Source: Candidatus Omnitrophota bacterium
GTDB taxonomy: Bacteria; Omnitrophota; Gorgyraeia; Gygaellales; Profunditerraquicolaceae
Assembly: GCA_023227985.1 (NCBI GenBank)
Contig: JALOCB010000003.1
Coordinates: 5,260-69,259, forward strand
Reading direction: 5' to 3'
Length of the DNA stretch: 64,000 bases
The translations under genes and the position numbers were made by a program. Positions 4 to 35,776 of the stretch are shown piece by piece. Position 1 is the first letter of the stretch. Each line of letters opens with the position of its first letter. The notes under the pieces are model-generated. The model worked only from the letters and a program-made list of their open reading frames with translations, was not told the DNA's origin and did no database searches.

Positions 4-3000
4 ATGATCCAGCGTCTGGCTATTAATAATGGTACTGCCCACGGCAATAACTATGACGCTGACGGTAAACTTATTGAAACACAGATGAATTTGAAGATGA
101 CCGCGGCGATCGCCGAAGTTATTAAGGCGTATGGTATACAGATAGTCCAGCACGGCGTGACCGGAACGCCTATTAAAAATCTCCAGGCATTGCGTAATGT
201 CGGGATCAGGGCCGCTCATGTCGGGACCAATTGGCAGAATATTATTTGGGAAACTTTAGTTGCCCAGGCGCAGGCGGGTAATTCGACCGCTAAGTCCATA
301 GTAAACCGGATGATCGATGCGACTATCGCTAAGACTGCGGACGTGGAGAAGAAGTATAAAGTATCCGGCCGAAGCGCAGAAGCCAAGGATAGCGTTTATG
401 TCCCGGGAAAAGACAAGAACCTGGACAAGCTGATCGGTAAAGAATTAAAGATGGTATTAGGTGTTTTCAACGACGAGTTGGTTGCTCTTCCTGATGACTT
501 GATTGCCAAGATTGATGAGGCCACCGAAAAATCCGCTACCGAGCATATGCTGGGTTTCGGTTCTGACGGAACAGCCCAGATGGTAAAGGATGATTATGCG
601 GTTCAGGGGTTGGTTTATCCTGAAGATTTCTCCTCGATCAAAGGATTATATGCCTTTAAGGCGCTCGAAGGAACGGATAAGACGATTATGTGTTGTAATA
701 TACGTTCGCCTCTAAGCATTAGGGGTATTATGCGCGCGGCCCAAAAAACAGGCAGCGTGGTTATTTTTCAGCAGGCAATGAGCGAATTCGATTATACCTG
801 GAAAGGCGGCTATGCCCCGGAGAATGCGGCTAAGCTTGCCCGTAATATCAAAGAAGCTGCAAAAAAAGAAAATTTCCACGATTTCATGATTAAGGGCGAT
901 CATCTTACGGTTAAAGTTGATGATGCTTTCTTGAAGGATAAGGCGGCGCAGGATGCTGTTGCTGTGGTATTTGAGAAAATATTGGATGAACAGGATGTTT
1001 CCAAGCGGGAAGCATTGTTCAACGCTGCATCCAAAGACGAAGTTCTTTTAGCCAATGCCGGCGTAGCTAAAGCAATGAAAGCGGTAAATAAGGCTATGAC
1101 CTTGATCAAAGAAGAAGTTGCTTCGGATTTCACTGTTTTTGCTTTAGACGCGTCATTTATGCCTACCAGGCTTAATGTCCTGGTCAGCGCTTACCTGGCG
1201 GGGTTTATTCCCCAGGATGCAGGTTTGGAAGCTGAAGTTGGCGAGATTGGCGGAAAAGAAAATTCCACGGTTGCCGACGCGTTGGAATTCATTACCGGTA
1301 TCAGGTTCAAGGAAGAGGTTGTGGTCAGCCAGGGAGTGAAATATTCTCAGCTGGTCGGTCCGAGAAGGATCGGTGTTCTTACCGGCGGCGGACCTGCTTC
1401 CGGGCATAACGCGGTGATCGCGGCAATGGTCCGCGAAGCGGAGCAGCGGGGGATCGAGATCGTGGCTATCCCTGAAGGTTGGGCTGGTTTGACCAAGGAT
1501 GAAGTAGCCGCGCAAGCCAAGGTTATAACTATTAAAGATGTGGAAAAGTGGGGGAAGAAAGGCGGCACAATGCTGGGGACCAGCCGCACCAATCCGTATA
1601 AGAAAGAAGGGGACGCCCAGAAGGTTTGGGATAATATCCAGAAGTTAAAGCTTGACGGTCTGGTAACTCTCGGCGGTGATGATACCAACGGGGTTACTTC
1701 CAAACTGCAAAAAGAACATCCGGATTACTTATTCATTGGTCTGCCTAAGACCATGGATAATGATATAGCGCTTCCGGAGAGTGACGCGCAGACCTATGGT
1801 TTTGACAGCTTTACCGTCAAGGCCTCTGAATCGTTCGAGGCTGGAAAGATTGACGCGCAATCTACCCATAGGATACTGATCGCTGAAGTTTTTGGAAGGG
1901 CGGCCGGATTCGTTTCTGCGCGTATCGGGGCCAATATAGGGGCTACCCGCACACTGATCCCTGAAGAATTGGTTGATCTTTCAAAGTTAGTCGAGGATCT
2001 GCGCAGCTATTATAAGAATAATAAATACGGGGTTGTTGTGGTTGCCGAAGGGGCAAGCGTCAATGTTGATGGTTTCAAACTGGATGAAAACGGGGAATTG
2101 ACAGTTGTTAAGCCCGAAGACCCGGATGTAAAATTGTTGCTGGCCGCATTTAAGAGCGATCCTATGGCCAAAGCGGCTTTTATCAAGTCTATGAAAGCCG
2201 AGATGGATGATTTTGGCCACAAAAAACTGGAGAATGTCGGTCTTATTGTCGCAGCTGTGGTAAAAACCGCGTTAAAGGCGGATAAGATCGATATTAGCTT
2301 CGCCGGTAAAGCGGATTATCTTTTTCGCTCCGCCGATGTTTCCAAATTGGACGCTGAAATGACCACTATGCTGGGGAAGGCCGCTGTGGAGAAGATCGCG
2401 GATATCCAGAATGATCAGTTGCTTTACGCTTACAAGGGGCAGATTAAATCCATACCGTTTGCCCGGGAATTAGGCGGAAGGGTCCTGGATTACAAAGGCG
2501 CCCATAAAGATGAATATATGTTGGCCAACCTGGCGCTTATTGATGAAAAAACTGAAATAACGCTTTCGGATGCATCGGTTAATGAGGACTTGTTCCAGGC
2601 AGCGGTTAGAAACTTAAAAGGACTTAACCCGGGCGAATTAATGACTCTGAGTTTTTCGGAGATGAAGGTTTTGTTATGGAAGCTTAATAGCCTTGATCAA
2701 GAAACCGGGGACAATCAGGAAGTAGTTCAGTCTGTCAGAAGGATTCTGCATAGGATAGACGACAGGCAGATAGAACAGGTCAAGAAATTTGCCAATATCG
2801 GCGTGTTTGCCCGAGAAAATACTGCGTATAACCTGGAATCAGTGCTTAAGGATGACAATATCCTGGTTATCGCGGCTAACGCGCTTATTTTTCGCGCCGG
2901 AGCCTTTGCCGAATTCTATCATAATTGGGAGCCGGGAGTTAACCTCGCGGCGATCAAGTCTATGAAAGGCGGCAAAGAAGCTACTGCCGAGGAATTTGTC

Positions 3001-4767
3001 CGGCAGAACAGCCGTTATAACGGACCTTTTAGCCCGTATCAGTTAAAAGGTTTGCGCGTGCTTAAGGATGAACGCCGGGTGATTGATGGTGTCGCTGTTA
3101 ATTTCATTTTCGTGCCCGCGGATAAGAATATCGGAAGGCCGGATATCAAGATACCATATTTCGGCCCGGAAACAACTAACCAGCAGGTGCTTGATACTAT
3201 GAAGGCCTTAGGTTTAGAGTTGGATGTCATGGCCTATTACGGCCCGACCAGCGAAACGGTTCAGCCCAGGATATTCAAGGAGTTCATTGAGGCTGGATTG
3301 CCTGTTGTAGCAGCTTCTCCGGTCAACACCGACGCTGTAAAAAATATGCTCAAAGCTAAGTTTCAGCAGGAAGGTGTTGCGGATGATATGCTGGATGAAG
3401 CGGTGAGTAAGGCTTTTAAGGAAGGTTTGTATTCCGCTACCCGTAAAGAAATCGGCGCGGATGTCAAGATCGTGGATACTTTAAGCTGCACTTCCAATGC
3501 CATGATTTCGGTTATTAAAGCAATGTGGGATAAGTTCGGTATCGATCATGGTACCGGCCTGACTATTCATTCCCAGACTGATTCCAATGAGACTTTCCCG
3601 ATGAAAAGCGGCAGGGCCAGGGATCCCCTGGATATCGCCCGCGGCGATTCCATCCGTGACAACATAATCCCTGCTTCAACCGGCGCAAAAAAGAACCTCT
3701 TTAAGATGATCCCGGAATTAAAAGGCAGGTTCGAGATCACCGCTGTTCGCACCGGTACTGTTTCGGCTTCGACCTGGGAGATGACCATGGACCTTAAGAC
3801 TGAAGTGACCAGGGATGATGTCCTTGCGGCTTTAAAGGATTTCGCCCTGAATAAGACCGACGGGGTGGTGAAATTTCACGAAGGAGACCCGGACAGGAAT
3901 CCCGGGCCTCTGGACGCCAACGCCGTGGTCGGCTGGAATAATGTTTCTATTATCGACAGTTTATTGATCAATGTTCTGGATAATAAGAAAACAGTGACTA
4001 TTAAAGGTTTGTATGATAACCAATCAGCGGCGCCGAATCAAATGGTTTCTAAATGGTCGCCGTGGATGGTTGACGGTTTAAGGCTGCGCCAGATAGTCGG
4101 CGAAAAGAACAGCAAAAAGCTGAACAAAGCCGAAGCTGTAGCGTATGCCAAACTCAACGCCGGTTATGCCGGCCTGCTTAAAGCCGTAAGCGCGGTAAAA
4201 ACCAGCGGAGCTCTGGTGGTCAGCGCTGACGTGGTCTTAAAGAACGCCGGGACGCTTTCATCGCTCAAAGCCTTGAAAGAATCAGGCGCTCTTATTGAGA
4301 TCATTGTCCAGGCGAACAACAAGGCTGTCGCTGATAAAATGGTATCAATGGGCGTTGAACAATTCGCGAGCATTCAGTTCAAGCAGGTTAACGCGATAGT
4401 AGAAGAGTTGAATACCAAAGGTATAACTGATGAAAGAATAGTAGTGCTTAAGACCAAAGCTGAATCGAAAGAAGAAGTCAAGAATACCGTCAAGGTGGTC
4501 AATGTCGGCGAAGCTAAAGTCGCCGAATCTTCTGTTAATGCCATGTCGATAGCAGTGGCAAAGGCAGTAACCACCGTGTTGCAGGATAATACGGAGGTTG
4601 TTGATCAATATCAGCAGATGGCGAAGAATTACGCCGAAGCTAACGACGTCGAGCTAAGCAAACTGGAAGATCTGACCAGCCAGATCTCGGATATGCCGCT
4701 GGTTAAGGTGAGCGAAGAAGTGGTCAAGGCTCAGGTTACTTACGAAGAAACTGTAAACAAGATCTAA
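4..4767 (+). CDS. Giant multidomain glycolytic fusion protein, 5'-partial (N-terminus lies upstream of the window). Domains in order: class II aldolase C-fragment, complete class II fructose/tagatose-bisphosphate aldolase, PPi-type phosphofructokinase, about 100 aa unassigned, divergent GAPDH, shared C-terminal module.
   Basis: The first ~95 aa match an aldolase C-fragment (GTAHG, IVQHGVTG, VGIRAAHVGTNWQ). Aldolase motifs: EAEVGEIGGKEN, SPLSIRGIMRAAQKTGSVVIFQ. PFK motifs: GVLTGGGPASGHNAV, LGGDDTNG, PKTMDNDI, EVFGRAAGF. GAPDH motifs: LSCTSNAMISVIKAM, TIHSQTDSNE, RGDSIRDNIIPASTGAKKNLFKMIPELKGRFEITAVRTG. C-terminal ~190 aa are near-identical in layout to the ORF2 C-terminus. Confidence 0.8.
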   Translation: MIQRLAINNGTAHGNNYDADGKLIETQMNLKMTAAIAEVIKAYGIQIVQHGVTGTPIKNLQALRNVGIRAAHVGTNWQNIIWETLVAQAQAGNSTAKSIVNRMIDATIAKTADVEKKYKVSGRSAEAKDSVYVPGKDKNLDKLIGKELKMVLGVFNDELVALPDDLIAKIDEATEKSATEHMLGFGSDGTAQMVKDDYAVQGLVYPEDFSSIKGLYAFKALEGTDKTIMCCNIRSPLSIRGIMRAAQKTGSVVIFQQAMSEFDYTWKGGYAPENAAKLARNIKEAAKKENFHDFMIKGDHLTVKVDDAFLKDKAAQDAVAVVFEKILDEQDVSKREALFNAASKDEVLLANAGVAKAMKAVNKAMTLIKEEVASDFTVFALDASFMPTRLNVLVSAYLAGFIPQDAGLEAEVGEIGGKENSTVADALEFITGIRFKEEVVVSQGVKYSQLVGPRRIGVLTGGGPASGHNAVIAAMVREAEQRGIEIVAIPEGWAGLTKDEVAAQAKVITIKDVEKWGKKGGTMLGTSRTNPYKKEGDAQKVWDNIQKLKLDGLVTLGGDDTNGVTSKLQKEHPDYLFIGLPKTMDNDIALPESDAQTYGFDSFTVKASESFEAGKIDAQSTHRILIAEVFGRAAGFVSARIGANIGATRTLIPEELVDLSKLVEDLRSYYKNNKYGVVVVAEGASVNVDGFKLDENGELTVVKPEDPDVKLLLAAFKSDPMAKAAFIKSMKAEMDDFGHKKLENVGLIVAAVVKTALKADKIDISFAGKADYLFRSADVSKLDAEMTTMLGKAAVEKIADIQNDQLLYAYKGQIKSIPFARELGGRVLDYKGAHKDEYMLANLALIDEKTEITLSDASVNEDLFQAAVRNLKGLNPGELMTLSFSEMKVLLWKLNSLDQETGDNQEVVQSVRRILHRIDDRQIEQVKKFANIGVFARENTAYNLESVLKDDNILVIAANALIFRAGAFAEFYHNWEPGVNLAAIKSMKGGKEATAEEFVRQNSRYNGPFSPYQLKGLRVLKDERRVIDGVAVNFIFVPADKNIGRPDIKIPYFGPETTNQQVLDTMKALGLELDVMAYYGPTSETVQPRIFKEFIEAGLPVVAASPVNTDAVKNMLKAKFQQEGVADDMLDEAVSKAFKEGLYSATRKEIGADVKIVDTLSCTSNAMISVIKAMWDKFGIDHGTGLTIHSQTDSNETFPMKSGRARDPLDIARGDSIRDNIIPASTGAKKNLFKMIPELKGRFEITAVRTGTVSASTWEMTMDLKTEVTRDDVLAALKDFALNKTDGVVKFHEGDPDRNPGPLDANAVVGWNNVSIIDSLLINVLDNKKTVTIKGLYDNQSAAPNQMVSKWSPWMVDGLRLRQIVGEKNSKKLNKAEAVAYAKLNAGYAGLLKAVSAVKTSGALVVSADVVLKNAGTLSSLKALKESGALIEIIVQANNKAVADKMVSMGVEQFASIQFKQVNAIVEELNTKGITDERIVVLKTKAESKEEVKNTVKVVNVGEAKVAESSVNAMSIAVAKAVTTVLQDNTEVVDQYQQMAKNYAEANDVELSKLEDLTSQISDMPLVKVSEEVVKAQVTYEETVNKI

Positions 4768-7900: not shown

Positions 7901-10900
7901 TAACAAAGACGTTGCCTGGCACGCGGACCAGATCCGTCGTTTGAAAGCCGGAGATTTTACTGCGGAGGAAAAAGCCCAGATCATGGCTATGGGGTTTAAT
8001 CCCGAAGAGTATGGTTCAGGCAAAGAAAAGCAATTGTCGGTTATTCTTTATCTGCTTGAAGCTGACCCGAATCATGATCCGATCATGCGCCTGGTTGATT
8101 CGGTTGTTACTATCCGCGGCGGCGATACCTGCCACGCGGCTATCTTTTGCCGTGAACAAGGGATCCCTGCGGTCACCGGCGCGGGCAAGGTTATACTCAA
8201 CGGCCAATTGCTTAAGACCGGTGACGCGGTTACCGTTGATGCTAATAACGGGAATATTTACGAAATGCCCGCTGATGCCGGAGCGCGCATTCCGATCAAC
8301 TACGTGAAATTCAAGATTAAACCGTATGGCATCCCCGGCGACGACGACAATATGCCGTATCCGGGCATCGGCCAGATCATCGCCGCGGCAAGTGCCGCTC
8401 AGCAGAACTCGCCTATTATGCTTGCGGTTGACGCGGTCGGTAACTCGCTGACCCGCGCCGAGTTCAAAGGCGAAGAGATCGGTATCAACGTTTACGCCGG
8501 CTATGGCCATTATCTTTTACAGCAGATCAAGGCCGGAAAAATAAAGGAGCCAGTGAGGGTGCGTGTCCAGGAATTGATCCAGGGCAAGGTTCCCGGCGCA
8601 AAGAGGTTCGTGGACAATATTGAAAATGTTATGGCAGGCGCTTTTGCCAAGGATCCCGCCGCGCGTTCGGCATATCGCGACATTATGGGTAAGGATTTCA
8701 ATAAGGCGGATAGCCTGCAATTGCTGGAGTTTTTCGATTTGAAGAGCGACATTGAGCTGTATGGATTGGATGCGCTTAAACTGGTAAAACAGCAGGTTGA
8801 TATTCTTGATCTCGTTCCCCGGCTTCCGGAGAATATGTATCAGACGCTTGAATATCTTTATGGCGCCACTCAGCGCAGGCTCAACTATGATTATAATATT
8901 ATCGCCGATCTTCAGAACCATCCGTGGATACTGAAAGAAGTCGATTCTAAACTCGCGGAAAAGGGTTACGCGACGTTCAAGGAATACATCACTAACGAAT
9001 TCCTGTATTTTTACAATTTGATGGGTTTTACCATTGCGCCCGATCAGACCGCCAAGAACAGGGCTTACGATTTCGCCCAGGATAAGATCCGCGGCATGCC
9101 CGGTTCCGAGGTTTTTTCCTGGCCCGGAGTCAATCCGTTGGTCGGTTTGCGCGGTACGTCGTTGGAGATCGAGGCCTTTGACGAAGATTTCGGCGGCAAT
9201 CAGCTGGTATTGGATTTTCTTTTTGATTCCGTGATCCAGGCGCACCAGAATACCGGTAACCAAGCCTGGTTTTATGTGTTTGTCCGTTCTTCCCGGGAGT
9301 TAGAGACCCTGGATAAGATCATTGAGCACAAGGCTAAGCAGACCGGGAAGCTTCCGAAAGAGATCGGGATCATGATCGAAGTTCCCAGTGCCGCTTTGGT
9401 GGCTGATGAGCTTGCTGTTAAGATGTCCGAGATGGAGAAAAAATATAAGAAGTATGGCGTTGAGCATACTTTCTTTTCCTTCGGCACTAACGACTATTCG
9501 CATCTTGCTGGTATGGGTGACCGTGAAGACCCGCGAATGAAACTCAAGATTATGGATCCCGCAGCGATCGAAGCGATCGGCGAGATGAAAGCAGCGGGGT
9601 ATTATTATGATGATGCTGCTAAAGTGCTTCCGTTGATTGATGAAGGCGCTGATGTTATGCAGCAGCTTATGGAAACAGTGGTTGCTGCGGCTAATGGTTC
9701 AAGCGTGGCTACCTCGCTTTGCGGCGAGGCGATCACCGCCCTGGTTAACCGCGGGGATTATGAGACCGCAGGCAAGATAATGGCGCTTCTGGATTCTTTC
9801 GGCGTGAGCATGATGAAAGTCCGCCTCGCAGCTTCAATGACGCGCGTGGACACCATGGCGGCTACCAAAGGGATCACCATTCCGGAAGCCGGACGTTCGA
9901 TCCTGTTCGATTTGTCTGCCGGCGAGGTGAAACAGAAAAAGGGCGTCATCAAGGGCGAGATAATATTCGTTGATAATGCCGATGATCTCGTCCCGAACGT
10001 CCTTAAAGGCCTTCAGGGTCCGGAGCTGACGAAAAAGAAAGAGATGTTCAAGCTCCAGAGCCTGGAAAACGCCCGTTCGACTATGCGTACCTTCAATAAG
10101 ATCGTAATTATCACTAAAAACCTCGTTGCTCAGCAGGAGCCTGAGTTGGTCGCGGAGATGGGCAAAGCCGCATTCAGCAAGTTTGTCAATGACGGCCTGC
10201 TTAAAGATATCGGTAATGGGCAGTATGTCTGGACGAATCTGGGTGTAAAGACGGAGAAGTTCAACCAGGAATTGACAATTCAAGGTTTCTCTGAAAAAGA
10301 ACGTAAAGCTATTGAAGGTTTGTGGCAGAAGGCCTGGGATAACAGCATTGAAGGGCTTGAGCGCCGCGGAATTGATTGGGATGATCTACAATATGCCAAG
10401 GCTATAATCGTTGATGCGGACGTTAACCTTGATGGCTGGGATGTGTTCCGCAAGGACAAGAGTATTATTCCGACCCGTATCAAGGCTACGGTCAAAGGTA
10501 TAAGCTCCCGCCGTGCGGAGTTAGAAGGGCAATTGGCAACTATAGATTACGCCGCTAAGAAGGTCTACAAGGATTTTCTCAGCGTGGAAAAGATCGCTGC
10601 CGTCCTGCGCAGTCTTCCTATCCCAGCGGAAAAGCCTATGATAACTACGCAATCGGCTGTCGCGGAGAACGCCAACAGTGTATACCAGAAGATCGGGTAT
10701 CATCCTAAGCTCCTTCTTGCCTATGAGCGGAATGCTGTGAATGAACTTGGAAAGATATTCGAGGAATATGTAGGCAAGCTGGTTGAAGAAGTTGAAAAAG
10801 TTACTCAGGAGACCGACGTTCAGAAACGCGTATGGCTTTTACAGAAACTGCAGAATAAAGTTGGCGGGCTTGCGGAACCGATGATCAAATCGTTTATGAG

Positions 10901-12698
10901 CGATGTGCTTTCCGAGGCCATGCGCACAGGTGCGGTAACGCTGCCGGATAACTGGAACAAGAAGCTTTGGGAGGCCTATCGCAGCGACCTGGAAAGCGAG
11001 ATCAGTAAGATCCTTAACGGAAAGACGGTTGAGCAGTATTTTATCGCGCAGTTCAGCGAACAGATGAAGGAAGTGCTCTCCGCCAACAAAGGGGCATTGG
11101 TTGTCCATCTTTTGGGAAGCCTCAACTGTGTTGATTTCTTTAATATGAAAGGCGGTTTCCTGGTTGAACAGGTCAATCCCAACCCTGATTACGGCATTCT
11201 TGGAGCGGCGCGCGCAATAGGGGATATGTGGGAGATAAACCGCATGGAATTGTCCGCTTTTAAGGCGGTATGGGATAATCTGCCGGTTGACCAGCGCGGT
11301 AATTTTGGCCTGCAGATCACCAATCTCAAAGGCACCCAGTCCGGCGCGGTGGTGATCGGCTGGCGTAATATTCTGAAACAAACCGGTATTATCCCGGGGC
11401 AAGACGGTTTGCAGGTTGGCGTCAATATCGTCACTCCGGCGGATAGCATCGCTGCGGATAAGTATTTTGAGTACTTTAATACGCTCGGAAGCGGGTTAAG
11501 TTTTATCTCATATGATGCGTTGAAGCTTGGCGCTGCCTGGGCCGGCGTGGATATTTTTTGGAAGGAATGGAGGAGGCTGGCTAAGGAAGATGAGTTGTTG
11601 AGGTTCGGCGTCATGACCGGCTGGATGGCGGAAGCCAAGGCTCTGAGGTTCGGCGGCAAAGTCCTTTCCTTTGATATTTCTGACGAAGCCAAACAGACTG
11701 ACGGCGGCGCTGAGGTTGTGCCTTACCGGGTAGTGGTGGAGAATCTCTTCCGGGGGATCATTAAGAAATATGATGCTTTGGATAACGGCCAAGCTCTTTC
11801 TCTCGAAAAAGAAGAGTTGGAGGCAATACTCTGGATCTTGAATTCTTCTCCTTTTGAGAATATGTCAAGCCCGTTTGCCGCGATCAAGAGTATGAAGAAT
11901 ATCAGGAATGTGATCGAAAGGCTCAGCGATGACCAAAAGAAGGCCCTAAGTGTACTTTCACAGGGCTTGGTTTTTGTCAATCACGGGCTGGATAAAAAGG
12001 TGGCGGCATTGCTCGTAGACAAGAAGTTGCTCGACACCGCATATGAATCCGACACGGCGGTATATAAAGGGTTGAACAGCGGTTTTGACAGCTTCGCCAA
12101 TGCCTTGAAAGAGGTTAAGAATGCCGAGGGCGCTTTAGTGGTTAGCGCAAATGCTGTGTTGAATAACGCCGGAACGCTGAGAGTCCTGAGAGAAATAAAA
12201 GAAACCGGGCTGACCTTGGAAATAATCGTCCGGGCTGATACGGAAGATCAGGTGAATAAGCTGATTGCCCTTCGGGCAGACGAAGTCGCGACTATCCAGG
12301 CCAAGCGGCTGTCAGTTGTGCTCAGCGGCTTGAAGAACGCGGGTATAACCGATGGCAAGATAGTGGTGATTAAAGGCAAAGAAGAAGTAAAAGACGCGGT
12401 AGAAGCCGGCGTAAAGGTCGTAGAGATCTCCATGCCTAAAACAGAGGAGTCCAGTATCAACTCCATGGCCTTAGTTGCGGCAAAAGCGGTAATCATAGTG
12501 TTAAATGGTGAAGAAACGGTTGCCGCGCAATACCGGGAAATGGCGGTAAAATACGCCGCAGATAACAGCGTAACCTCTGAAGAATTGGATGATCTGCAGG
12601 ACCTGACCAGCCAGATCTCGGAGATACCCATGGCCAAGGTCAGCGAAGAAGTCGCTAAGGCGCAGGCCACTTATGAGGAGACTATAAGCAAGATATAA
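4926..12698 (+). CDS. Giant 2590-aa fusion protein. Domains in order: N-terminal leader, unknown N-domain, pyruvate phosphate dikinase/PEP synthase-like domain, ~730 aa unassigned region, shared C-terminal module.
   Basis: RBS GGAGGG 7 nt upstream of the ATG. PEP-utilizing enzyme motifs: ALAGGKGLSLSVM, VAVRSSGTKEDIHVKTWLPVSTGSQAGQSDTFLNVKG, GGDTCHAAIFCREQGIPAVTGAG, FSFGTNDYSHLAGMGDRED, SLCGEAITAL. The N-terminal leader RKIVGILILLQFSAGFAVIRGYAAPGNLRPAAVK is shared with ORF3. The C-terminal ~190 aa match ORF1 (GALVVSANAVLNNAGTL ... LTSQISEIPMAKVSEEVAKAQATYEETISKI). Confidence 0.8.
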   Translation: MFVRLSQNNLFRKIVGILILLQFSAGFAVIRGYAAPGNLRPAAVKQDGSRSGTIQNSLDAASLDKVIKTPVIHKDGGITGQDVFKNILGEYRVSSTINNLAFGTFVQGQIDLSSVQNREALVNNFGEIKSKDRFFTLEYAGIPLALVKKAETGEITVKKVVEDIASIPLNILSDNAEKLKTEGVTSSDILVRDFLILEKRSRIDITQCMTVEFGELRDYVYNLAKNVGQEKALEMASAFAGKATVDEAMAEVGEKAKQLGRDQAKDTGLALAGGKGLSLSVMSRVVDVPPGLNVTTTAYFKFVKDNKQVWEKIFNELQTLDTMDDQKRDVVTSEIRDVIKSAPIPEDIKAEVTAMYHQLSVIRFLAGKPSPAPVAVRSSGTKEDIHVKTWLPVSTGSQAGQSDTFLNVKGERDVLDKLRADWASLFTDRAVSYRDDATFLQFSGAIDFNGKTSQDVYWGIVAKLREYSKKLDKPEYNVYADLMSKVTSPNPGSVSLMNAMEEILRQESNPEMSNALAVLKKKAEEVVHPEQIGIDVVIMQMAKSYLAGVLFTVNPATKMAGVAQSLYKSWYMGDDSLVYRDAKTDIIQGTRPIVVSFDVAFGYGENVVGGKVNPDKFIMGTYDGESWFVIEKSKGNKLIQMKDVEEVIDLLKDKISEKGQRQLAMTVKDAIAYDEVGKRINGIMATKLYGIKYLKALEGKEESDKDKKARVQAIANEIADMVKNKVSEDEVVAFIKGNFEVVNRKGYKGIQEMALSGVVREVFEKVQQAQAETDRGMFKLSKQLGDMGKADTLIHMIKEVWENKEFTLSDRQAILDKLNLTNQELRNMSYLIRALVDNSFTSNYETTLTHQDTFTMTDDQAQYVARMGWAITEYYKDARDIEYAIEIDKTASSDKAVRLYVVDDLGNVQGMDNNGNLVTVKSEKDKARIKEAKLRLYNVQARPYTAEYLKVDVMRARTEADEKWLEENSPKAIASGTKGENATQGYVLVFDPNKDVAWHADQIRRLKAGDFTAEEKAQIMAMGFNPEEYGSGKEKQLSVILYLLEADPNHDPIMRLVDSVVTIRGGDTCHAAIFCREQGIPAVTGAGKVILNGQLLKTGDAVTVDANNGNIYEMPADAGARIPINYVKFKIKPYGIPGDDDNMPYPGIGQIIAAASAAQQNSPIMLAVDAVGNSLTRAEFKGEEIGINVYAGYGHYLLQQIKAGKIKEPVRVRVQELIQGKVPGAKRFVDNIENVMAGAFAKDPAARSAYRDIMGKDFNKADSLQLLEFFDLKSDIELYGLDALKLVKQQVDILDLVPRLPENMYQTLEYLYGATQRRLNYDYNIIADLQNHPWILKEVDSKLAEKGYATFKEYITNEFLYFYNLMGFTIAPDQTAKNRAYDFAQDKIRGMPGSEVFSWPGVNPLVGLRGTSLEIEAFDEDFGGNQLVLDFLFDSVIQAHQNTGNQAWFYVFVRSSRELETLDKIIEHKAKQTGKLPKEIGIMIEVPSAALVADELAVKMSEMEKKYKKYGVEHTFFSFGTNDYSHLAGMGDREDPRMKLKIMDPAAIEAIGEMKAAGYYYDDAAKVLPLIDEGADVMQQLMETVVAAANGSSVATSLCGEAITALVNRGDYETAGKIMALLDSFGVSMMKVRLAASMTRVDTMAATKGITIPEAGRSILFDLSAGEVKQKKGVIKGEIIFVDNADDLVPNVLKGLQGPELTKKKEMFKLQSLENARSTMRTFNKIVIITKNLVAQQEPELVAEMGKAAFSKFVNDGLLKDIGNGQYVWTNLGVKTEKFNQELTIQGFSEKERKAIEGLWQKAWDNSIEGLERRGIDWDDLQYAKAIIVDADVNLDGWDVFRKDKSIIPTRIKATVKGISSRRAELEGQLATIDYAAKKVYKDFLSVEKIAAVLRSLPIPAEKPMITTQSAVAENANSVYQKIGYHPKLLLAYERNAVNELGKIFEEYVGKLVEEVEKVTQETDVQKRVWLLQKLQNKVGGLAEPMIKSFMSDVLSEAMRTGAVTLPDNWNKKLWEAYRSDLESEISKILNGKTVEQYFIAQFSEQMKEVLSANKGALVVHLLGSLNCVDFFNMKGGFLVEQVNPNPDYGILGAARAIGDMWEINRMELSAFKAVWDNLPVDQRGNFGLQITNLKGTQSGAVVIGWRNILKQTGIIPGQDGLQVGVNIVTPADSIAADKYFEYFNTLGSGLSFISYDALKLGAAWAGVDIFWKEWRRLAKEDELLRFGVMTGWMAEAKALRFGGKVLSFDISDEAKQTDGGAEVVPYRVVVENLFRGIIKKYDALDNGQALSLEKEELEAILWILNSSPFENMSSPFAAIKSMKNIRNVIERLSDDQKKALSVLSQGLVFVNHGLDKKVAALLVDKKLLDTAYESDTAVYKGLNSGFDSFANALKEVKNAEGALVVSANAVLNNAGTLRVLREIKETGLTLEIIVRADTEDQVNKLIALRADEVATIQAKRLSVVLSGLKNAGITDGKIVVIKGKEEVKDAVEAGVKVVEISMPKTEESSINSMALVAAKAVIIVLNGEETVAAQYREMAVKYAADNSVTSEELDDLQDLTSQISEIPMAKVSEEVAKAQATYEETISKI

Positions 12699-12778: not shown

Positions 12779-15700
12779 ATGTCCAGGCCGTCTAAAAACA
12801 ATAGTATCTCTAAAATAATTTCCGGCGTTGTGATCGCGCAATTTATCATGAGCAGTATAGCCCTGCGCGGTTATGCCGGCACAGACAATTTAAGGCCGGC
12901 TCCGGTCAAAGATTCCGACCGGATAAGCGTTCTGGCCGATGAATTGCAGAAAGACGGCGGCAAACTGGCTGAATGGATCCATATCTTAGCGGAAAATACA
13001 ATTGTGGGCGATGCCGCTAAAGGTTCGAACGTCGGCATGGTCATACGGCTGGGAAAGCTTGTTGAAGAGAATATATCCGGGTCCATATTAGGGCATTCGG
13101 CAAACCGGAAGGCGTATATAAAGGAAGTGGGCGCTCAAATCGCTGAAGGGCTGCGTTTGACCGGAATGGAAGAAAAGGCGATCGCGGCTGCCAGCCGCAA
13201 GATAGCTTTTTCCAGATACGATAACATCATGAATCACCGGATCCAGGCGATGTTTCAAGCAGGGATCAGGGAGATCTGCCTTTGCGTAGGCAGTGATAAG
13301 GATAAGCTCACCGTTGAGGAAGAGATATCGGATGTGCTTGCGCAGTTGCAGGTGTCTTTTGCCGATGTCTCTTTGGAACAAATAAAAAAGATAATTTTCC
13401 ACGTGGCTTGGGAGCCTGCGGCGAATATCGGCACCGGTACTGCTGTCGGTCCGGAAAAGATCAAGCTGGTCCATCAGGCTATCTATGAATTCTTTGCCGA
13501 GAAGTATAATACACCCTCCGGGTATATCGGCGATGTTTGGGGGAAGTCATTGAAAATACTTTACGGCGCAAGCGTTGACGGAAAGAACGTCGACGGCATA
13601 ATGGCGGTGAAAGAGGATAAAGGCATGGCTTTGGTGCACGGCGTGTTATTCGCTTCTTCGGGTAAAAAGGCCGATGGCTTCCTGGCTGTGGCCGAGGGGG
13701 TTAGCCGCGCCGCGGAAAGGGATAACGCCCAGTATGTCTGTTTTGTCAACCTTAAGGAATTCGCCAGGGCTGAGAAAGATGAGGCTTTGACTTTTGTCGT
13801 CGAGATCGTCCGGGCCATTGCTTTAGGACGGATCGATCCCCGGCATACCATTCTGGCGATCGCTGACCAGGATGTACATCTAAAGGAGTGGCAGGACGCG
13901 ATCGTCGGCAGAAGCGTTTCGATGTCGGACGGCGGATACGCGTATGTTGAAGGAACGAACTTTAAGGACAAGAATGTGCTTTTTCGCCCGGATTATAACA
14001 CTCCGGCTTCGGTAAAGACCGATGATCAGGGTAATGTTTTGTCGATCAAAATATCCGACGCAAGCAGGATCGTTGATTCCTTCCCGGCTTTGACCAAGAT
14101 CCTGAAAGATAAGCCAAAACATGTGGTTGTCGTTGTCCATTTCGAACCTAAGGTGTTGAATCCCGCGACCGGTAAGAAAGACAAGAAAAATCTGTCTACT
14201 AAAGTCACAGCGGACAAACTTAAAGAATTGCTGCCGGCGGAATATAAAGATAAGGTAATATTCCTGGCTGATTCAGTCAATGACAATGGGATTGCCGCCG
14301 AAGCAATGCGGGCTATAGAAAGTTATACTGATTCCGAGATCATCGTATTGGAAAATATCCGTTTTGCCAAAGGCGAAAAGAAAGGTGCCCCCGAGCTTAA
14401 TGATCCTAAAGGTGTAGCTTTACGCAAACAGCTTTCAGGATTAGCGGACGAATATGTGGTGGATGCCTTGGGTAATATTCATCGCGCCCACGCATCAATG
14501 CTGCCTTTGCCCGGGGTGCATAAAGTCATGGGCAGTCTTGTGGAAAAAGAGATTAAAGTGTTCAACCGGATACTTAACCCGGCGCATCCTTATGCCGGGG
14601 TTAACGGCGGTAATAAGGTTGAAGATAAAGTGGATACCATGGATGTGTCTTTGTCGACGATGCAGGAAGGCGACGCGATCATCATCGGCGGGGCTATGGC
14701 CTACACTTTTTTAAAGGCGCAGGATCCAACATTGAAATTGGGCAAATCACTTGTTCAGGCGGATAAAGTTGATCTGGCTAAGACTATACTTGAGAAGGCC
14801 GCCCGGAAGAAGGTGCGGATAATCCTTCCAGTGGACCATCGCATCTCGGATAAACTCGCTCCCGGAGCAGCAGAATTGGTTACTGAGGGGCTGGAAGTGC
14901 CGGATGGGTACATGGCGGTAGATATCGGACCCAAGACTGAAAAAATAGTCGCCGAGGTCTTAAGTAATGCCCAGACCGCTTTTTGGAACGGCCCAATGGG
15001 CGCGTTCGAGGATGAGGCTGGTGGTTTTAATAAGGGGACTTATACGGTTGCCAGGGAACTGCAGAAAATGGGCAGGTCCGGACGCCTGGCCGGTATCGGC
15101 GGCGGGGAGACACGTATGGCAGCAATTAAGGCCGGGGTTACCGATGCTGACGGCGTGTTCATGTCCAGCGGCGGCGGTTCCACGCAGGAATATTTCGCCA
15201 AGAAAGGCAATCTCCCGGTGATCAAGAATCTGGAGAATGACGAAACCGCCCAGAAAAATCTCGTCCTCGCGGGGAAATTGGGGGTAGAACCCGCGGATCT
15301 GGCGCGTTTTGAAGCGGCAGACAGCAGTATTTATAATGCCTTGGGAGATAAACTTTTCAACGGCTATATATCTCAGGTCAGAAGGTTGCTTCCCAGGTTT
15401 TCGACAGGCCAGAAATTAAACGGCGCTCTGTCCAAAGCAGAGGTCTCTGCGGAGGTGATTAAAGATTCGCGCGGAAACAATACTGTCCGGGCAACTTTAA
15501 AGATCGGGGATATTGTTACTGTCGGCGAAGTCCCTGCAGGCGCTTCCAAAGGGGCAGCTGAGGCTTTTGCTTTTCCGCCGAAGGAAATAGATAGGGCGAT
15601 CGCCAACGTGGCGAAGATCCAGGAGATACTTAAGAACAGCGGCCTGGATATAAGCAAACACAGCGATCTGCGCAAGACGGAACAATTGATCATTGCCGCG

Positions 15701-17302
15701 GCCGGTGAAAACTTCGCGACACTGGGCGCGAACGCCACAGTCCCTATTTCCTGGGCCTTGTGGAGGATGGCGGCAGCGTTGAATAATATGGAACTCTGGG
15801 AATACATCCGGATCAATGAGCCGGGAGTTGTCGGTAATGATCCGGTTTATTTCTATATGAACATATATAACGGCGGGCTGCACGCTTCCGGAGGCGACGC
15901 TTCGGTATTGGGTACAGTTTGGACCGAATTCCAGGAGATGCTGATCGTGCCCGTGGGCGCTAAAACTCACGCCGAAGGCGTGGCTATGGGAGATAAGATC
16001 GACCAGGAATTGAAGAAAATACTGAAAGGTAAATTCGCGGAAGCGGATATAATGCGTAAAGATGAAGCTGGTTTCGCGGTCAAAGGCCTGGGAAAAAGCG
16101 AAGACGCGATCGCTTATGTGGTACAGGCGATCAGGAACGCCGGCTATGAGCCCGGTAAAGACGTAAAGCTGGCTTTGGATGTCGCCGCGACCTCTTTCTA
16201 CGACGAGAAAGAGAATATATACAAGTTCCAGGGCCAGAAATTGACCTCAGCCGAGATGGTCGATTTTTACGTCAAACTGGTAAAGCAATATGACGGCCTG
16301 TTCCTTTCTATAGAAGACGGCCTGGCTGAAGAAGATTGGCAGGGATGGGTAGAGCTAACCGCGGCTATGAAAGAAAAAGGCGTCCTGACTATAGGCGATG
16401 ATCTGTACGTTACCCAGCACGGCCGGTTGAACAAAGGGCTGGCGATGAACGCGGCTACAGCGATCCTGATCAAGGTTAATCAAAATGGGACCCTGGGCGG
16501 AACTATCGATGTTATGAAGACCGCCAAGGCCAATGGCATTAAAGCTGTGGTATCGCACCGTTCCGGAGAAACTCTGGATGCCGGGATCGCGGATCTGGCT
16601 TACGCAACCCGGGCGTTCGGGCTTAAAACCGGGGATCCTCAACCTTTGGTTGATTTCCAGAATCCGAACGAACTGGTGCGCCGGGCTAAGTATGACAGGA
16701 TGATCGAGATCCAGAAACAAGAAAACATCCAAAATGACCCGGCATTATCCAGGCCTAAAGCGCTGTTGATCAATGCGGATTTTTTCAAATCCGGCGCGGT
16801 TAAGAACGCTGTGGCGGAAATAGCGAGATTAAACGGGAATATCAATGTGGTGATCTACGGAGATAATGCCGAAAAGCTAAAGACGCTGGTAGGAAATCCC
16901 GATATTATCGCGGTGCGGAGTTTGACTGCAGCTGTCTCTGAAATAGCTAACCGCGGGGTAAAATCTTCTCAGGATGCCGTTATTTTGACGCCTATGCCGT
17001 ATAGCTCGGAAACGTTTATTGTTCAAATCCGCAGCGGAGAAATAAGCACGCTGGCTTTGGCCAAGGCGGTAAAGCAGTTATTCAAGAACGACCGGATCAC
17101 CGCGGCTATGGATGAATTCTATAAATCGCTGGTTGATAACAAAGTGGTTTCCGAGCAGGACTACATAAATACAAGGGAAAAAATCCTAACGGATCTGATC
17201 GACGGTGTTTACAACCTGGGTGAGATTAAGTTGACAAAACAGGTATCTGATGTTATAGAAAAGGAGCGGCTGGTAACCGAAGAGTTCGTGGGTAAAGTGT
17301 AA
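12779..17302 (+). CDS. Giant 1507-aa fusion protein. Domains in order: N-terminal leader, triosephosphate isomerase, phosphoglycerate kinase, enolase, divergent shared C-terminal module.
   Basis: RBS AGGAGGG. TPI motifs: ILGHSANRKAY, HVAWEPAANIGTGTAVGPEKIKLVHQAI, ILYGASVDGKNVDGIMAV. PGK motifs: ILENIRFAKGEKKGAPE, YVVDALGNIHRAHASM, FWNGPMGAFE, GGGETRMAAIKAG. Enolase motifs: SRGNNTVRATLKIGD, VPAGASKGAAEAF, ILIKVNQNGTLGGT, VSHRSGETLDAGIADLAYA. The C-terminus ends LTKQVSDVIEKERLVTEEFVGKV, which resembles the LTSQISD...VTYEE endings of ORF1 and ORF2. Confidence 0.85.
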   Translation: MSRPSKNNSISKIISGVVIAQFIMSSIALRGYAGTDNLRPAPVKDSDRISVLADELQKDGGKLAEWIHILAENTIVGDAAKGSNVGMVIRLGKLVEENISGSILGHSANRKAYIKEVGAQIAEGLRLTGMEEKAIAAASRKIAFSRYDNIMNHRIQAMFQAGIREICLCVGSDKDKLTVEEEISDVLAQLQVSFADVSLEQIKKIIFHVAWEPAANIGTGTAVGPEKIKLVHQAIYEFFAEKYNTPSGYIGDVWGKSLKILYGASVDGKNVDGIMAVKEDKGMALVHGVLFASSGKKADGFLAVAEGVSRAAERDNAQYVCFVNLKEFARAEKDEALTFVVEIVRAIALGRIDPRHTILAIADQDVHLKEWQDAIVGRSVSMSDGGYAYVEGTNFKDKNVLFRPDYNTPASVKTDDQGNVLSIKISDASRIVDSFPALTKILKDKPKHVVVVVHFEPKVLNPATGKKDKKNLSTKVTADKLKELLPAEYKDKVIFLADSVNDNGIAAEAMRAIESYTDSEIIVLENIRFAKGEKKGAPELNDPKGVALRKQLSGLADEYVVDALGNIHRAHASMLPLPGVHKVMGSLVEKEIKVFNRILNPAHPYAGVNGGNKVEDKVDTMDVSLSTMQEGDAIIIGGAMAYTFLKAQDPTLKLGKSLVQADKVDLAKTILEKAARKKVRIILPVDHRISDKLAPGAAELVTEGLEVPDGYMAVDIGPKTEKIVAEVLSNAQTAFWNGPMGAFEDEAGGFNKGTYTVARELQKMGRSGRLAGIGGGETRMAAIKAGVTDADGVFMSSGGGSTQEYFAKKGNLPVIKNLENDETAQKNLVLAGKLGVEPADLARFEAADSSIYNALGDKLFNGYISQVRRLLPRFSTGQKLNGALSKAEVSAEVIKDSRGNNTVRATLKIGDIVTVGEVPAGASKGAAEAFAFPPKEIDRAIANVAKIQEILKNSGLDISKHSDLRKTEQLIIAAAGENFATLGANATVPISWALWRMAAALNNMELWEYIRINEPGVVGNDPVYFYMNIYNGGLHASGGDASVLGTVWTEFQEMLIVPVGAKTHAEGVAMGDKIDQELKKILKGKFAEADIMRKDEAGFAVKGLGKSEDAIAYVVQAIRNAGYEPGKDVKLALDVAATSFYDEKENIYKFQGQKLTSAEMVDFYVKLVKQYDGLFLSIEDGLAEEDWQGWVELTAAMKEKGVLTIGDDLYVTQHGRLNKGLAMNAATAILIKVNQNGTLGGTIDVMKTAKANGIKAVVSHRSGETLDAGIADLAYATRAFGLKTGDPQPLVDFQNPNELVRRAKYDRMIEIQKQENIQNDPALSRPKALLINADFFKSGAVKNAVAEIARLNGNINVVIYGDNAEKLKTLVGNPDIIAVRSLTAAVSEIANRGVKSSQDAVILTPMPYSSETFIVQIRSGEISTLALAKAVKQLFKNDRITAAMDEFYKSLVDNKVVSEQDYINTREKILTDLIDGVYNLGEIKLTKQVSDVIEKERLVTEEFVGKV

Positions 17303-17399: not shown

Positions 17400-18701
17400 A
17401 TGTTAAGGCGCATCAGGACAATTAAAAAAAAGGTTAAAATCATATTCTGCGCGGCAGCCGCGGTTTGTGCGGTTGTGTGTTTTTTACCGGTAACCTGCCA
17501 GGCGGGTATGGCGGGTAGTGAACAGATAAGCGCGCTAAGCTTAAAAGGCATCCAATGGGAGAGCCTGCCGGGCGGGGGGACGCGCTTAAAGATCTTTGCT
17601 GACGGCTTAAAGGCCGGAAGGTTTGAGCCATTGATCGATCCGGAAGAGTCCGGGCGCAGGTTAATGGATTTTTTTATCCTGGGTTTGAATGTCCGGGAAG
17701 ACAAATTCTGGGCCAATCTTACTCCCGGCGATCCGGATAATATCATTGACCCGGATTTGGCCGGGACGCCCTTAGGCGAGGTTATGCTCAGGGCGGACCT
17801 GAGATTGAAAAAAGATTTCTGTGAATTGACCAACCCGCAGTTTTCCCAGCCCGGCAAAAAATACTGGGCAGCCTTATCGGAAAAAGCGGCGGAACTGGGC
17901 ATTAAGAAAATACCCGCGATGAACCGCGTGTGGATAGTCCCGGAAGAGGCTGCGGTTTATGAGGCCGGAAACGGGGCTTATATAACCGAAAGCCGGCTTA
18001 AGGTCTGCCTGAAAATAAATTATTCAGCCGGTCTTCTTAAGGACGGCGGCGGTAAGGCGTACGGCGAACTTTCGGAGTATGCCGGAGAATTGGTAAGGGA
18101 TATTATTTTGCCTGAATTGGATAAAAGGGTTAATGAGGATTTCCTCTATGCTGACCTGAGGCAGGTAAATAGGGCATTGATACTGGCCAGATGGTATAAT
18201 AACAAATTCGGCGATGGCGGGGGATTTAATTTAAAAAATACCCTGACAGCATCGAGCCGGCCTGAGATAAACGCGGGCTTGCTAAAGAAACAGATATATG
18301 ATGATTACATGGATTCTTTGAGCAATGGCGAATATGTGGTCGTCGGGCCGTCAGGCTGGTCCAGCGCATTGGATTATTTAAGGCCTAAGAAACGTTATAT
18401 CAGCGGAGGTGTTGATTTGCGCAAAAGTCCGGCAAGGCGCAGCCCGGCGCCTGCGGCAGCCTGGCAAGGCCGGGATCCGCAGTTTACATTTTTAGTGGAA
18501 ATATCCGCGCAGGCAGTTATGTCCGCGGGAGATAAAAATAATGCGATAAATGATTTTTCCGTCATAGGAAATATCGGGGATAATAATGTAGAAGGGCTAA
18601 TCCGGGATTTGCCGGGAATATCGCCTTCGCGTAATAACCGGGATGCGGAAACCGATATAAATAAAGGCGTTATAAGCGATATGGTATTATATAGTTTATA
18701 A
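17400..18701 (+). CDS. Hypothetical secreted protein with N-terminal signal peptide.
   Basis: Long ORF with an N-terminal basic region followed by hydrophobic FCAAAAVCAVVCFLPVTCQA. No recognisable catalytic motifs. Confidence 0.5.
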   Translation: MLRRIRTIKKKVKIIFCAAAAVCAVVCFLPVTCQAGMAGSEQISALSLKGIQWESLPGGGTRLKIFADGLKAGRFEPLIDPEESGRRLMDFFILGLNVREDKFWANLTPGDPDNIIDPDLAGTPLGEVMLRADLRLKKDFCELTNPQFSQPGKKYWAALSEKAAELGIKKIPAMNRVWIVPEEAAVYEAGNGAYITESRLKVCLKINYSAGLLKDGGGKAYGELSEYAGELVRDIILPELDKRVNEDFLYADLRQVNRALILARWYNNKFGDGGGFNLKNTLTASSRPEINAGLLKKQIYDDYMDSLSNGEYVVVGPSGWSSALDYLRPKKRYISGGVDLRKSPARRSPAPAAAWQGRDPQFTFLVEISAQAVMSAGDKNNAINDFSVIGNIGDNNVEGLIRDLPGISPSRNNRDAETDINKGVISDMVLYSL

Positions 18702-18826: not shown

Positions 18827-19549
18827 ATGGACATAAAAGAACGCAGGCAGGCAATAAGGTGGCAAATAAACAGCCCCGGGCAAATTGTTCTGGAGGACTG
18901 CCGGGCGTTAGTTAATTGCACTATACTTGATATAAGTTACCGGGGGGTCCAGGTATTGCTGGATAAACCTCTGGAGAATACCAAGTTATTCAAGATCAGC
19001 GTCGTACTTTCCGAGGAGTGCTACCTGGACAGCATCGACCTGCGCAGCGTCTGGCACAGGAAGGTTCCGGAAGGCGAGCTTTACGGCTTGTATTTTAACC
19101 GCATAAAAGACATAGATAAAGAGAAGATCTACAAATTTGTCTTTAAGCACGCACCAAGGCAAATACATCAACAGTGGTGGCAGGAATCTGACAAGGGGGG
19201 GGGTGAATCAATGGAAGATATGGGGACCAACGACAAGAGAGTCTTTGCGCGGTTTCCGGTGCAGATGGCTTTGAAATTCATTGATCTATTATCCAACAGG
19301 GAAGGCCAGGCGCATGCTTATGATATCAGCGCCAAGGGTTTGGGATTTATGGCGACCGAGGAATTAAAACCGCTTACACCGTTGGAGATGTGGCTACAGG
19401 TCCCGGATAAAGGGGAGCCGCTTTATACCAGAGGTGAAGTAGTCTGGTCAGAGATGGTCGAACCTAATAAATACAAGGCCGGGATCAATCTGGAAAGAGC
19501 GGACCTGATGGGTGTTTCCCGGGTTTTAAGGACCCTCAATACGATATAG
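18827..19549 (+). CDS. Tandem PilZ-domain protein, a putative c-di-GMP receptor.
   Basis: Two PilZ-like segments, each with an RxxxR motif followed by a D-x-S-x-x-G motif: RRQAIRW...LDISYRGVQV and DKRVFARFPV...YDISAKGLGF. Confidence 0.5.
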   Translation: MDIKERRQAIRWQINSPGQIVLEDCRALVNCTILDISYRGVQVLLDKPLENTKLFKISVVLSEECYLDSIDLRSVWHRKVPEGELYGLYFNRIKDIDKEKIYKFVFKHAPRQIHQQWWQESDKGGGESMEDMGTNDKRVFARFPVQMALKFIDLLSNREGQAHAYDISAKGLGFMATEELKPLTPLEMWLQVPDKGEPLYTRGEVVWSEMVEPNKYKAGINLERADLMGVSRVLRTLNTI

Positions 19550-30126: not shown

Positions 30127-31688
<1,562 letters not shown>

Positions 31689-35774: not shown

Positions 35775-35776
35775 AA

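Follow-up and report, generated by a model that had tools for sequence, protein, structure and literature searches.

A glycolytic fusion protein of Candidatus Omnitrophota with a predicted circularly permuted triosephosphate isomerase and conserved catalytic residues

An open reading frame (ORF) of a Candidatus Omnitrophota bacterium joins triosephosphate isomerase (TPI), phosphoglycerate kinase (PGK), and enolase in a single polypeptide. The stretch of DNA analyzed here, which we call the window, is 64,000 nucleotides long and corresponds to positions 5,260 to 69,259 of the forward strand of contig JALOCB010000003.1 (NCBI GenBank assembly GCA_023227985.1). The ORF in question, named ORF3, spans 12779-17302 on the (+) strand and encodes 1507 aa. 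From its N-terminus it contains a leader, TPI, PGK, enolase, and a C-terminal module. We consider it likely that ORF3 is a trifunctional Omnitrophota glycolytic fusion in which TPI is circularly permuted and the enzymes have diverged while keeping their chemistry. A preliminary description, made from the DNA letters, had pointed to catalytic-residue differences in the fused domains and had left two options: active but divergent enzymes, or catalytically dead domains with a binding or scaffolding role. When the domains are properly aligned, all the catalytic residues that it had listed are conserved, namely TPI K13/H95/E165 (K326/H106/E212 of ORF3), enolase E168/E211/K345/K396, and C149/H176 of the glyceraldehyde-3-phosphate dehydrogenase (GAPDH) encoded nearby. 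This is the result that the description itself had named as a refutation, and the first option is thereby supported. The second is not, because every one of these residues is kept and they are invariant across homologs that are only 38-86% identical overall. Judged from sequence, the fused domains are probably divergent but active enzymes and not dead scaffolds.

All Pfam matches on ORF3 are above the cut-off and comprise TIM at aa 140-305 (partial), PGK at aa 392-807, and Enolase_N/C at aa 888-1289. One deposited protein is 99% identical and is labeled 'MAG: phosphoglycerate kinase [Candidatus Omnitrophota bacterium]'. The sequence comes from a metagenome-assembled genome (MAG), a kind of source in which a fusion could arise as an artifact of assembly or gene calling, through misassembly, a frameshift, or chimeric contigs. 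That explanation is effectively refuted. The full-length homologs at 38-86% identity come from independent assemblies, the architecture is repeated in NCBI, JGI, ENA, and Logan assemblies at 38-99% identity, the order of the segments is constant in ~35 family members, and ORF3 has no interruption in its 4.5 kb.

TPI is the textbook (βα)8 enzyme. The strand order of the ORF3 barrel is β3-β8 followed by β1-β2, and the canonical β1-to-β8 order is not found. The first segment (aa 62-311, 12962..13711, (+)), supported by Pfam, hhalign, AlphaFold2 (AF2), and Foldseek, corresponds to canonical β3 through α8. It holds H106 (H95 in canonical numbering) within GHSANRK (aa 105-111, nt 13091-13111), E212 (E165) within AWEPAANIGTG, and the loop 7 motif YGAS. 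The second segment (aa 312-380, 13712..13918, (+)), supported by AF2 and hhalign, corresponds to canonical β1-α1-β2-α2 placed after α8. It holds N324 (N11) and K326 (K13) within YVCFVNLKEF. The NLK motif (N324-L325-K326; nt 13742-13756) thus lies ~215 residues downstream of the GHS motif. Asn11 and Lys13 come after His95 and Glu165 because the barrel runs from canonical β3 to a terminal β1-α1-β2-α2. The preliminary description had correctly reported GHSANRK in place of GHSERR and the lack of NWK N-terminal of it. NWK only seemed to be absent because the barrel is circularly permuted, and its equivalent, NLK, is present further on.

The AF2 model spans aa 55-400 and has a predicted local distance difference test score (pLDDT) of 86.3, a predicted TM-score (pTM) of 0.85, and eight β-strands, the seventh of which ends in NLK. 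The strands at aa 67-71 (landmark AEN), 101-104 (landmark GHS), 165-171, 206-212 (landmark E212), 258-262 (landmark YGAS), and 288-291 correspond to canonical β3, β4, β5, β6, β7, and β8. They are followed by aa 319-324 (landmark NLK) and 357-363, which correspond to canonical β1 and β2 and both have pLDDT >90. The equivalent of loop 3 (aa 79-86) has pLDDT <50. When the model was searched with Foldseek, the top 50 hits were all TPI (E down to 1.4e-9) with TM ~0.66 of the target length, a value that we take to mean that ~6 of the 8 βα units align sequentially. The order of the segments and the eight-strand model together indicate a circularly permuted TPI barrel.

A helical hairpin of ~34 aa (aa 112-145, 13112..13213, (+)) is placed straight after GHSANRK. 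It is seen in the family alignment, as helices in the AF2 model, and as a gap in hhalign, and the length of the insertion after GHS ranges from ~9 to ~150 aa across the family. A HMMER alignment had placed GHSERR on 'AAASRK' (aa 134-139), in a single-sequence match that starts only at ~aa 112. This placement was discarded as wrong because the stretch falls in the length-variable insertion of the 18-sequence family alignment. Family and profile alignments put H95 on the GHS of GHSANRK.

Pfam TIM (PF00121) matches the domain with 70-76 bits (cut-off 20.1) over profile positions 94-242 only. Single-sequence HMMER searches of Pfam and PDB with a re-permuted TPI did not extend the match over β1-β2 (76.9 vs 75.6 bits). 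These searches were uninformative, and profile comparison was therefore used. In its native order, the family profile aligned by hhalign to TPIs of model organisms covers only residues 54-249 of Escherichia coli TPI (probability 99), with GHS paired with GHSERR and AWEP paired with AYEP. The re-permuted profile reaches residue 9 and puts NLK on NWK, with a small gain in score. A bridge set was formed by the canonical-order TPI domains of four other Omnitrophota fusions (P0033, P0034, P0035, and P0052). Against this set, the relocated segment aligns over columns 9-63 with NLK on NLK (probability 85.5, E 5.7e-6, score 37.7). None of 200 column shuffles reached this score (11.7±2.7, maximum 22.5). 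Aligned to the bridge set, the family profile reaches a score of 171 (columns 9-278) when re-permuted and of 140 (columns 65-276) in its native order. When 1.84 billion representative proteins were searched with the profile, only ~21 clusters, all of 600-3000 aa, matched its full length. Below these the scores drop sharply to ordinary 250-aa TPIs, which match profile positions ~70-225 only with at most 80 bits.

The 18-sequence TPI family alignment has H106-S107, R110, E212-P213, I217-G218, Y262-G263-x-S265, and N324-x-K326 as invariant positions. They include N324, K326, H106, and E212, the equivalents of N11, K13, H95, and E165. In distant members (P0055-P0062) the H, the E, and N-x-K are still kept. 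Conservation extends to loop 6 (I170, G171, and G173) and loop 7 (Y208 and S211).

The PGK domain (PF00162; aa 392-807, 13952..15199, (+)) scores 292 bits in Pfam. Its top PDB match is Thermotoga maritima PGK (1vpe, E 2.5e-58). The domain retains 13 of the 15 key residues: R21, D23, N25, R38, H62, R121, H167, R168, K213, K217, N334, E341, and T373.

The enolase domain (aa 888 to ~1305, 15440..16693, (+)) matches Pfam Enolase_N (PF03952) and Enolase_C (PF00113) and PDB entry 4a3r (E 8.7e-66). It was aligned with yeast enolase, which provides the numbering, with the standalone enolase of the window, and with 12 fused homologs. ORF3 is identical at 12/12 positions (S39, H159, E168, E211, D246, E295, D320, K345, H373, R374, S375, and K396). 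The same 12 residues are identical in 11 of the 12 fused homologs, and P0044 lacks two of them. The standalone canonical enolase (30393-31682, (-)) is the comparator paralog, and its position and motif are as given in the preliminary description. That description had also reported that the corresponding motif of the fused enolase differs, which holds true (SHRSGETLDAGIA, aa 1259-1271, nt 16553-16591). Only one position changes systematically in the fused enolases: yeast E379 is replaced by L, I, or N, and this accounts for the E/L difference in SHRSGET(E/L)D. We take E379 of yeast enolase to be neither catalytic nor involved in binding metal or substrate. The fused enolase shares 36% identity with the standalone one, and the respective Enolase_C scores are 215 and 415 bits.

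The GAPDH domain belongs to a different polypeptide. The ORF at 4-4767 (ORF1) encodes a fusion of class II fructose-bisphosphate aldolase (FBA), phosphofructokinase (PFK), and GAPDH. The start of the window removes its first 86 aa, and a complete counterpart (P0021) has 1673 aa. The GAPDH domain (2791..4086, (+)) is supported by Pfam Gp_dh_C (PF02800), by PDB alignments, and by hhalign with a probability of 99.3 over GapA residues 6-327. The SCTSNA motif that the preliminary description had set against SCTTNC exists in this fused GAPDH (nt 3484-3501, (+)), and it is therefore located in ORF1 and outside 12779-17302. The two motifs differ at T151 and C153 only, which are non-catalytic positions. 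PDB alignments and family-profile hhalign show that C149, H176, T179, R231, the TGA motif, and N313 are kept; TIHSQT is at nt 3562-3579 (+). The Ps and Pi anion sites also align. On the evidence of hhalign, the N-terminal domain is homologous to that of GapA.

Several observations weigh against the reading of these domains as active enzymes and of TPI as permuted. TPI E97 is replaced by A or N in the family (GHSANRK in ORF3), W168 by A (PAANIGTG), and the loop 8 GG (G232, G233) by AS (FASSGKK). Mutating E97 in other TPIs lowers activity 10²- to 10³-fold. In PGK, R65 of the 3-phosphoglycerate phosphate site is lost in this clade (HFEPK) and kept in P0015, and the Mg ligand D372 is changed to E. 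The N-terminal domain of GAPDH is not detected by Pfam Gp_dh_N (PF00044). In the hhalign alignment from GapA residue 6, 'NILVIAANALIF' replaces 'INGFGRIGR', with neither GxGxxG nor D32. The glycine loop is degenerate (VIAANALIFRAG, nt 2866-2901, (+)). Because GxGxxG and D32 are not kept and Gp_dh_N is silent, NAD(P) binding by this GAPDH is the one point of doubt among the catalytic sites. The comparison of the relocated TPI segment with five model-organism TPIs was not significant (12.3 vs 11.9±2.2, with 77/200 shuffles reaching the score), with NLK in the right register. The significance of the relocated segment comes from the Omnitrophota bridge sequences only. K326, H106, and E212 would be close in space by virtue of the topology of the model, and residue conservation is no proof of activity, which for the three domains we infer from sequence. 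The preliminary description had missed the circular permutation and the deviations at TPI E97, PGK R65, and the GAPDH glycine loop.

If at least one fused domain were dead, the polypeptide would be a pseudoenzyme scaffold that serves only as a platform for binding or assembly. Such a scaffold would fit the loss of TPI E97, of the GAPDH glycine loop and D32, and of PGK R65, and the scores of the fused domains, which are far below canonical ones as in the case of Enolase_C. It would also fit the retention of a canonical eno in the same window and the presence of a shared, non-catalytic C-terminal module. We nevertheless regard a scaffold as very improbable. The first-shell catalytic, metal, and substrate residues that were tested are invariant down to ~38% identity, which is the opposite of what is usual in pseudoenzymes, and the phosphate-gripper motifs of TPI (IGTG and YGxS) are kept.

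ORF3 is one of three neighboring giant genes, which together cover seven glycolytic steps. The PFK of ORF1 contains GGDDTN and PKTMDNDI (window 1672-1689 and 1744-1767). We take GGDDT together with PKTMDND to be the Asp/Lys signature of pyrophosphate (PPi)-dependent phosphofructokinases. ORF2 (4926-12698) encodes a protein of 2590 aa that resembles phosphoenolpyruvate (PEP) synthase and pyruvate phosphate dikinase (PPDK), and the phosphohistidine motif GGDTCHAAI is kept. The PPi-type signature of PFK and the PEP-synthase/PPDK-like ORF2 suggest a PPi-economizing glycolysis. Phosphoglycerate mutase is the only step of lower glycolysis that is not found in the fusions. A standalone cofactor-independent phosphoglycerate mutase of the apgM type, without a signal peptide, is encoded at 47544-48830 (+), in agreement with the preliminary description. 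We propose that ORF3 and its two neighbors, the permuted FBA-PPi-type PFK-GAPDH fusion and the PEP-synthase/PPDK-like giant, would perform most of the steps that lead from fructose-6-phosphate to pyruvate in a PPi-type glycolysis. The phosphoglycerate mutase step would be provided in trans by apgM. The leader and C-terminal module that the three proteins have in common would serve targeting or assembly and not catalysis.

The composition of these fusions varies. Matches to PPDK_N, PEP-utilizers, and PEP-utilizers_C explain ~900 of the 2590 aa of ORF2, and long stretches (aa ~1-270, ~690-1030, and ~1610-2390) have no family assignment. The class II aldolase of ORF1 (window 4-1332; aa 75-215 and 305-529 of P0021) is also circularly permuted. 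Its C-half (GTAHG, VQHGVTG) comes first and its N-half (KGDH, FALDASF, EAEVGEIGG) follows after ~90 aa. The aldolase halves are in canonical order in P0033-37, P0044-49, and P0051, and a GlpX-type fructose bisphosphatase (FBPase) lies between the C-half and the N-half in P0038-43 and P0050. P0007, from another lineage, has a cupin-type glucose-6-phosphate isomerase (GPI) ahead of TPI-PGK-enolase. PPDK is joined ahead of TPI-PGK in P0014. In P0012, P0013, and P0020 an archaeal-type GAPDH (SCNTT, with GxGxxG intact) is fused after the permuted TPI. A scan of contigs with short patterns for taxonomic spread found 3 loci only and was uninformative.

The enzymes might also be active but repurposed. 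Shifted kinetics, a changed substrate or cofactor (for example a slow TPI, a different GAPDH nucleotide, or gluconeogenic use), or a GAPDH that alone is non-functional would be examples of this. The second-shell changes in TPI, GAPDH, and PGK agree with repurposing. The related fusions with a GlpX FBPase inside a permuted aldolase point to gluconeogenic variants, and the lineages represented by P0012, P0013, and P0020 use an archaeal-type GAPDH with GxGxxG in similar fusions. On the other hand, the domains follow one another in the set and order of successive reactions of glycolysis, GAPDH has canonical Ps and Pi residues, the entire enolase site is canonical, and an alternative cofactor motif was not found. 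We consider repurposing improbable, and a glycolytic fusion of divergent enzymes that keep their chemistry remains the reading that we prefer.

The three fusion genes are found next to a much larger gene. On contig JAQTRK010000008.1 (assembly GCA_028711865.1), the three fusion genes are directly preceded by a 26,119-aa ORF and a 509-aa ORF, the larger of which ends 1.8 kb upstream of ORF1. Because this giant ORF is directly upstream, the window lies at the 3' flank of an Omnitrophota giant-gene locus.

The leader of ORF3 has two parts. Part 1 (aa 1-33, 12779..12877, (+)) has a basic n-region, a hydrophobic stretch of 17 aa (aa 13-29), and 'GYA|G'. Its best 15-aa Kyte-Doolittle window is 2.07, and its sequence resembles that of a Sec signal peptide or signal anchor. 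Part 2 (aa 34-61, 12878..12961, (+)), recognized by shared motifs, contains 'NLRP' (aa 37-40) and the terminal 'KDGG' (aa 58-61). NLRP and KDGG also occur in ORF2 (aa 38-41 and 74-77; leader 4926-5150), in full-length ORF1 (P0021), and in most homologs. A leader of this kind, with a basic n-region, 15-20 hydrophobic aa, an A-x-A-like site, an 'NLRP'-type motif, and KDGG, is present in all three fusion proteins of the window and in 47 of 56 retrieved family proteins, whatever enzymes they carry.

A second 'DGG' of ORF3 is found at the TPI/PGK junction (aa 384-386, 13928..13936, (+)), and the motif is also present in the giant protein. DGG is found 11 times in the C-terminal 2743 aa of the 26,119-aa protein (L003:3-8234), where shuffles give an expectation of 1.2, a ~9-fold excess. 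The spacing of DGG in this tail is ~85-370 aa. DGG closes the leader of all three fusions, and its positions are aa 59 and 384 in ORF3 and aa 75 and 2259 in ORF2. DGG may be a linker, a hinge, or a processing motif.

The shared C-terminal module is ~200 aa long and has an α/β core followed by helices. In ORF3 it occupies aa 1306-1507 (16694..17302, (+)) and ends in '...EEFVGKV'; the copies in ORF1 and ORF2 lie at 4168-4764 and 12096-12695, respectively. The consensus at the end is '(E/D)(E/T/F)(V/I/M)xK(V/I)'. A hidden Markov model (HMM) of the three copies in the window locates the module at the C-terminus of homologs. The copies of ORF1 and ORF2 are much closer to each other than either is to that of ORF3. 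The model of the module has a pLDDT of 84.6. It has no Pfam match, and Foldseek against PDB gave no hit with E<1e-3; a weak similarity to the haloacid dehalogenase (HAD)-like fold was noticed. The idea that the module is an enzyme was rejected, and it is regarded as non-catalytic because it has no invariant column. The giant protein was also searched for this module, which its C-terminus lacks. It is plausible that the leader and the C-terminal module form a binding or assembly element that is separate from the enzyme domains.

From their leader, the fusions are predicted to be exported or anchored in the membrane, in which case they would be apart from the cytoplasmic mutase and enolase. In a further explanation, the three fusions would be an exported or compartment-targeted glycolytic module of the giant-protein (archaeovorin) apparatus. 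The leader, with its signal peptide, NLRP, and KDGG, would take the proteins over the cytoplasmic membrane. The DGG junctions would serve for processing or as hinges, as they would in the giant protein. The C-terminal module would dock the three polypeptides to one another or onto the giant protein, and the permutations of TPI and class II aldolase would reposition the chain termini for serial fusion and domain insertion. If this were true, sugar-phosphate conversion and the formation of ATP or PEP would take place outside the cytoplasm of a predator, whether on its surface, within an internal compartment, or in or on its prey. We regard this explanation as rather unlikely.

Downstream of the fusion genes, the window encodes a protein of 433 aa with a signal peptide and no Pfam match (17400-18701), followed by a PilZ gene (18827-19549). 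Synteny is preserved at ~42% identity and comprises the three fusion genes, the protein of unknown function, PilZ, a sugar ABC transporter, and glycoside hydrolases. In a 42%-identical locus (L001), a 401-aa gene is the counterpart of the 433-aa protein and holds the same position, with PilZ next to it. A cluster for an Rnf-type complex (RnfC, D, G, E, A, and B-like) is located at 34986-39767 (-), which is ordinary for an anaerobic fermenter and fits the published metabolism of Omnitrophota.

A stable natural permutant of TPI that keeps the four catalytic residues and has a canonical-order relative in the same phylum would provide a system to study barrel folding, tolerance to fusion, and the role of E97. 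The permuted TPI fits only ~60% of the Pfam model, so that automated pathway calls could under-score it or read it as truncated. A reading based on motifs misleadingly points to a dead enzyme. Seven steps in three leader-bearing polypeptides beside a 26-kaa gene also raise the question of where suspected predatory nanobacteria run glycolysis.

Literature searches returned no description of a TPI-PGK-enolase fusion, of its catalytic sites, or of a permuted TPI or aldolase. A bifunctional PGK-TPI fusion of T. maritima (PGK structure 1vpe, TIM structure 1b9b) was reportedly described by Schurig et al. in 1995. As in ORF3, a bacterial protein joins PGK and TPI covalently, and the T. maritima proteins are the best PDB match of the ORF3 PGK and among the best matches of its TPI. 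In the Thermotoga protein, however, PGK comes before a TIM with a canonical barrel, and there is no enolase, leader, or C-terminal module, whereas in ORF3 TPI comes first, is circularly permuted, and carries a helical insertion. Stramenopiles have TPI-GAPDH fusions with N-terminal targeting signals (PMC3527533; bioRxiv 10.1101/257790). They are similar in that consecutive glycolytic enzymes are fused and preceded by an N-terminal targeting sequence, implying relocated glycolysis. They differ in being eukaryotic, mitochondrial, and two-domain proteins with a canonical TPI, whereas here three bacterial polypeptides cover seven steps.

A preprint reports that the giant Archaeovorin proteins of Omnitrophota, which are predicted to be extracellular, contain TPI, FBA, FBPase, GPI, and PPDK-like domains, and it describes giant genes with pilZ downstream of them (West-Roberts et al., bioRxiv 10.1101/2023.11.21.568195). 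The present locus resembles the Archaeovorin loci described there in its phylum, in the giant gene upstream, and in PilZ downstream of the fusion genes; the fusions and the giant protein also have the DGG junction motif in common. Unlike the Archaeovorin domains as described there, the fusions are separate ORFs of 1.5-2.6 kaa and not parts of a protein of at least 30 kaa. The passages searched in this preprint describe neither an analysis of catalytic residues nor a permutation. Fusions of glycolytic enzymes are thus already known, and, in the literature searched, glycolytic domains in giant proteins are mentioned in this preprint only (West-Roberts 2023).

A further comparison for the permuted TPI is provided by the other Omnitrophota fusions P0033, P0034, P0035, and P0052, in which TPI is fused to class II aldolase. 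These TPIs read 'GGNLKREF…VDVFLAP…GAQN…GHSEARR…AYEPVWAIG…YGGS'. They too have NLK in place of NWK, and their β1-α2 region is homologous to the relocated segment of ORF3. Unlike ORF3, they have the order β1-β8, keep E97 (GHSEARR), and are canonical in YEPVWAIG and YGGS.

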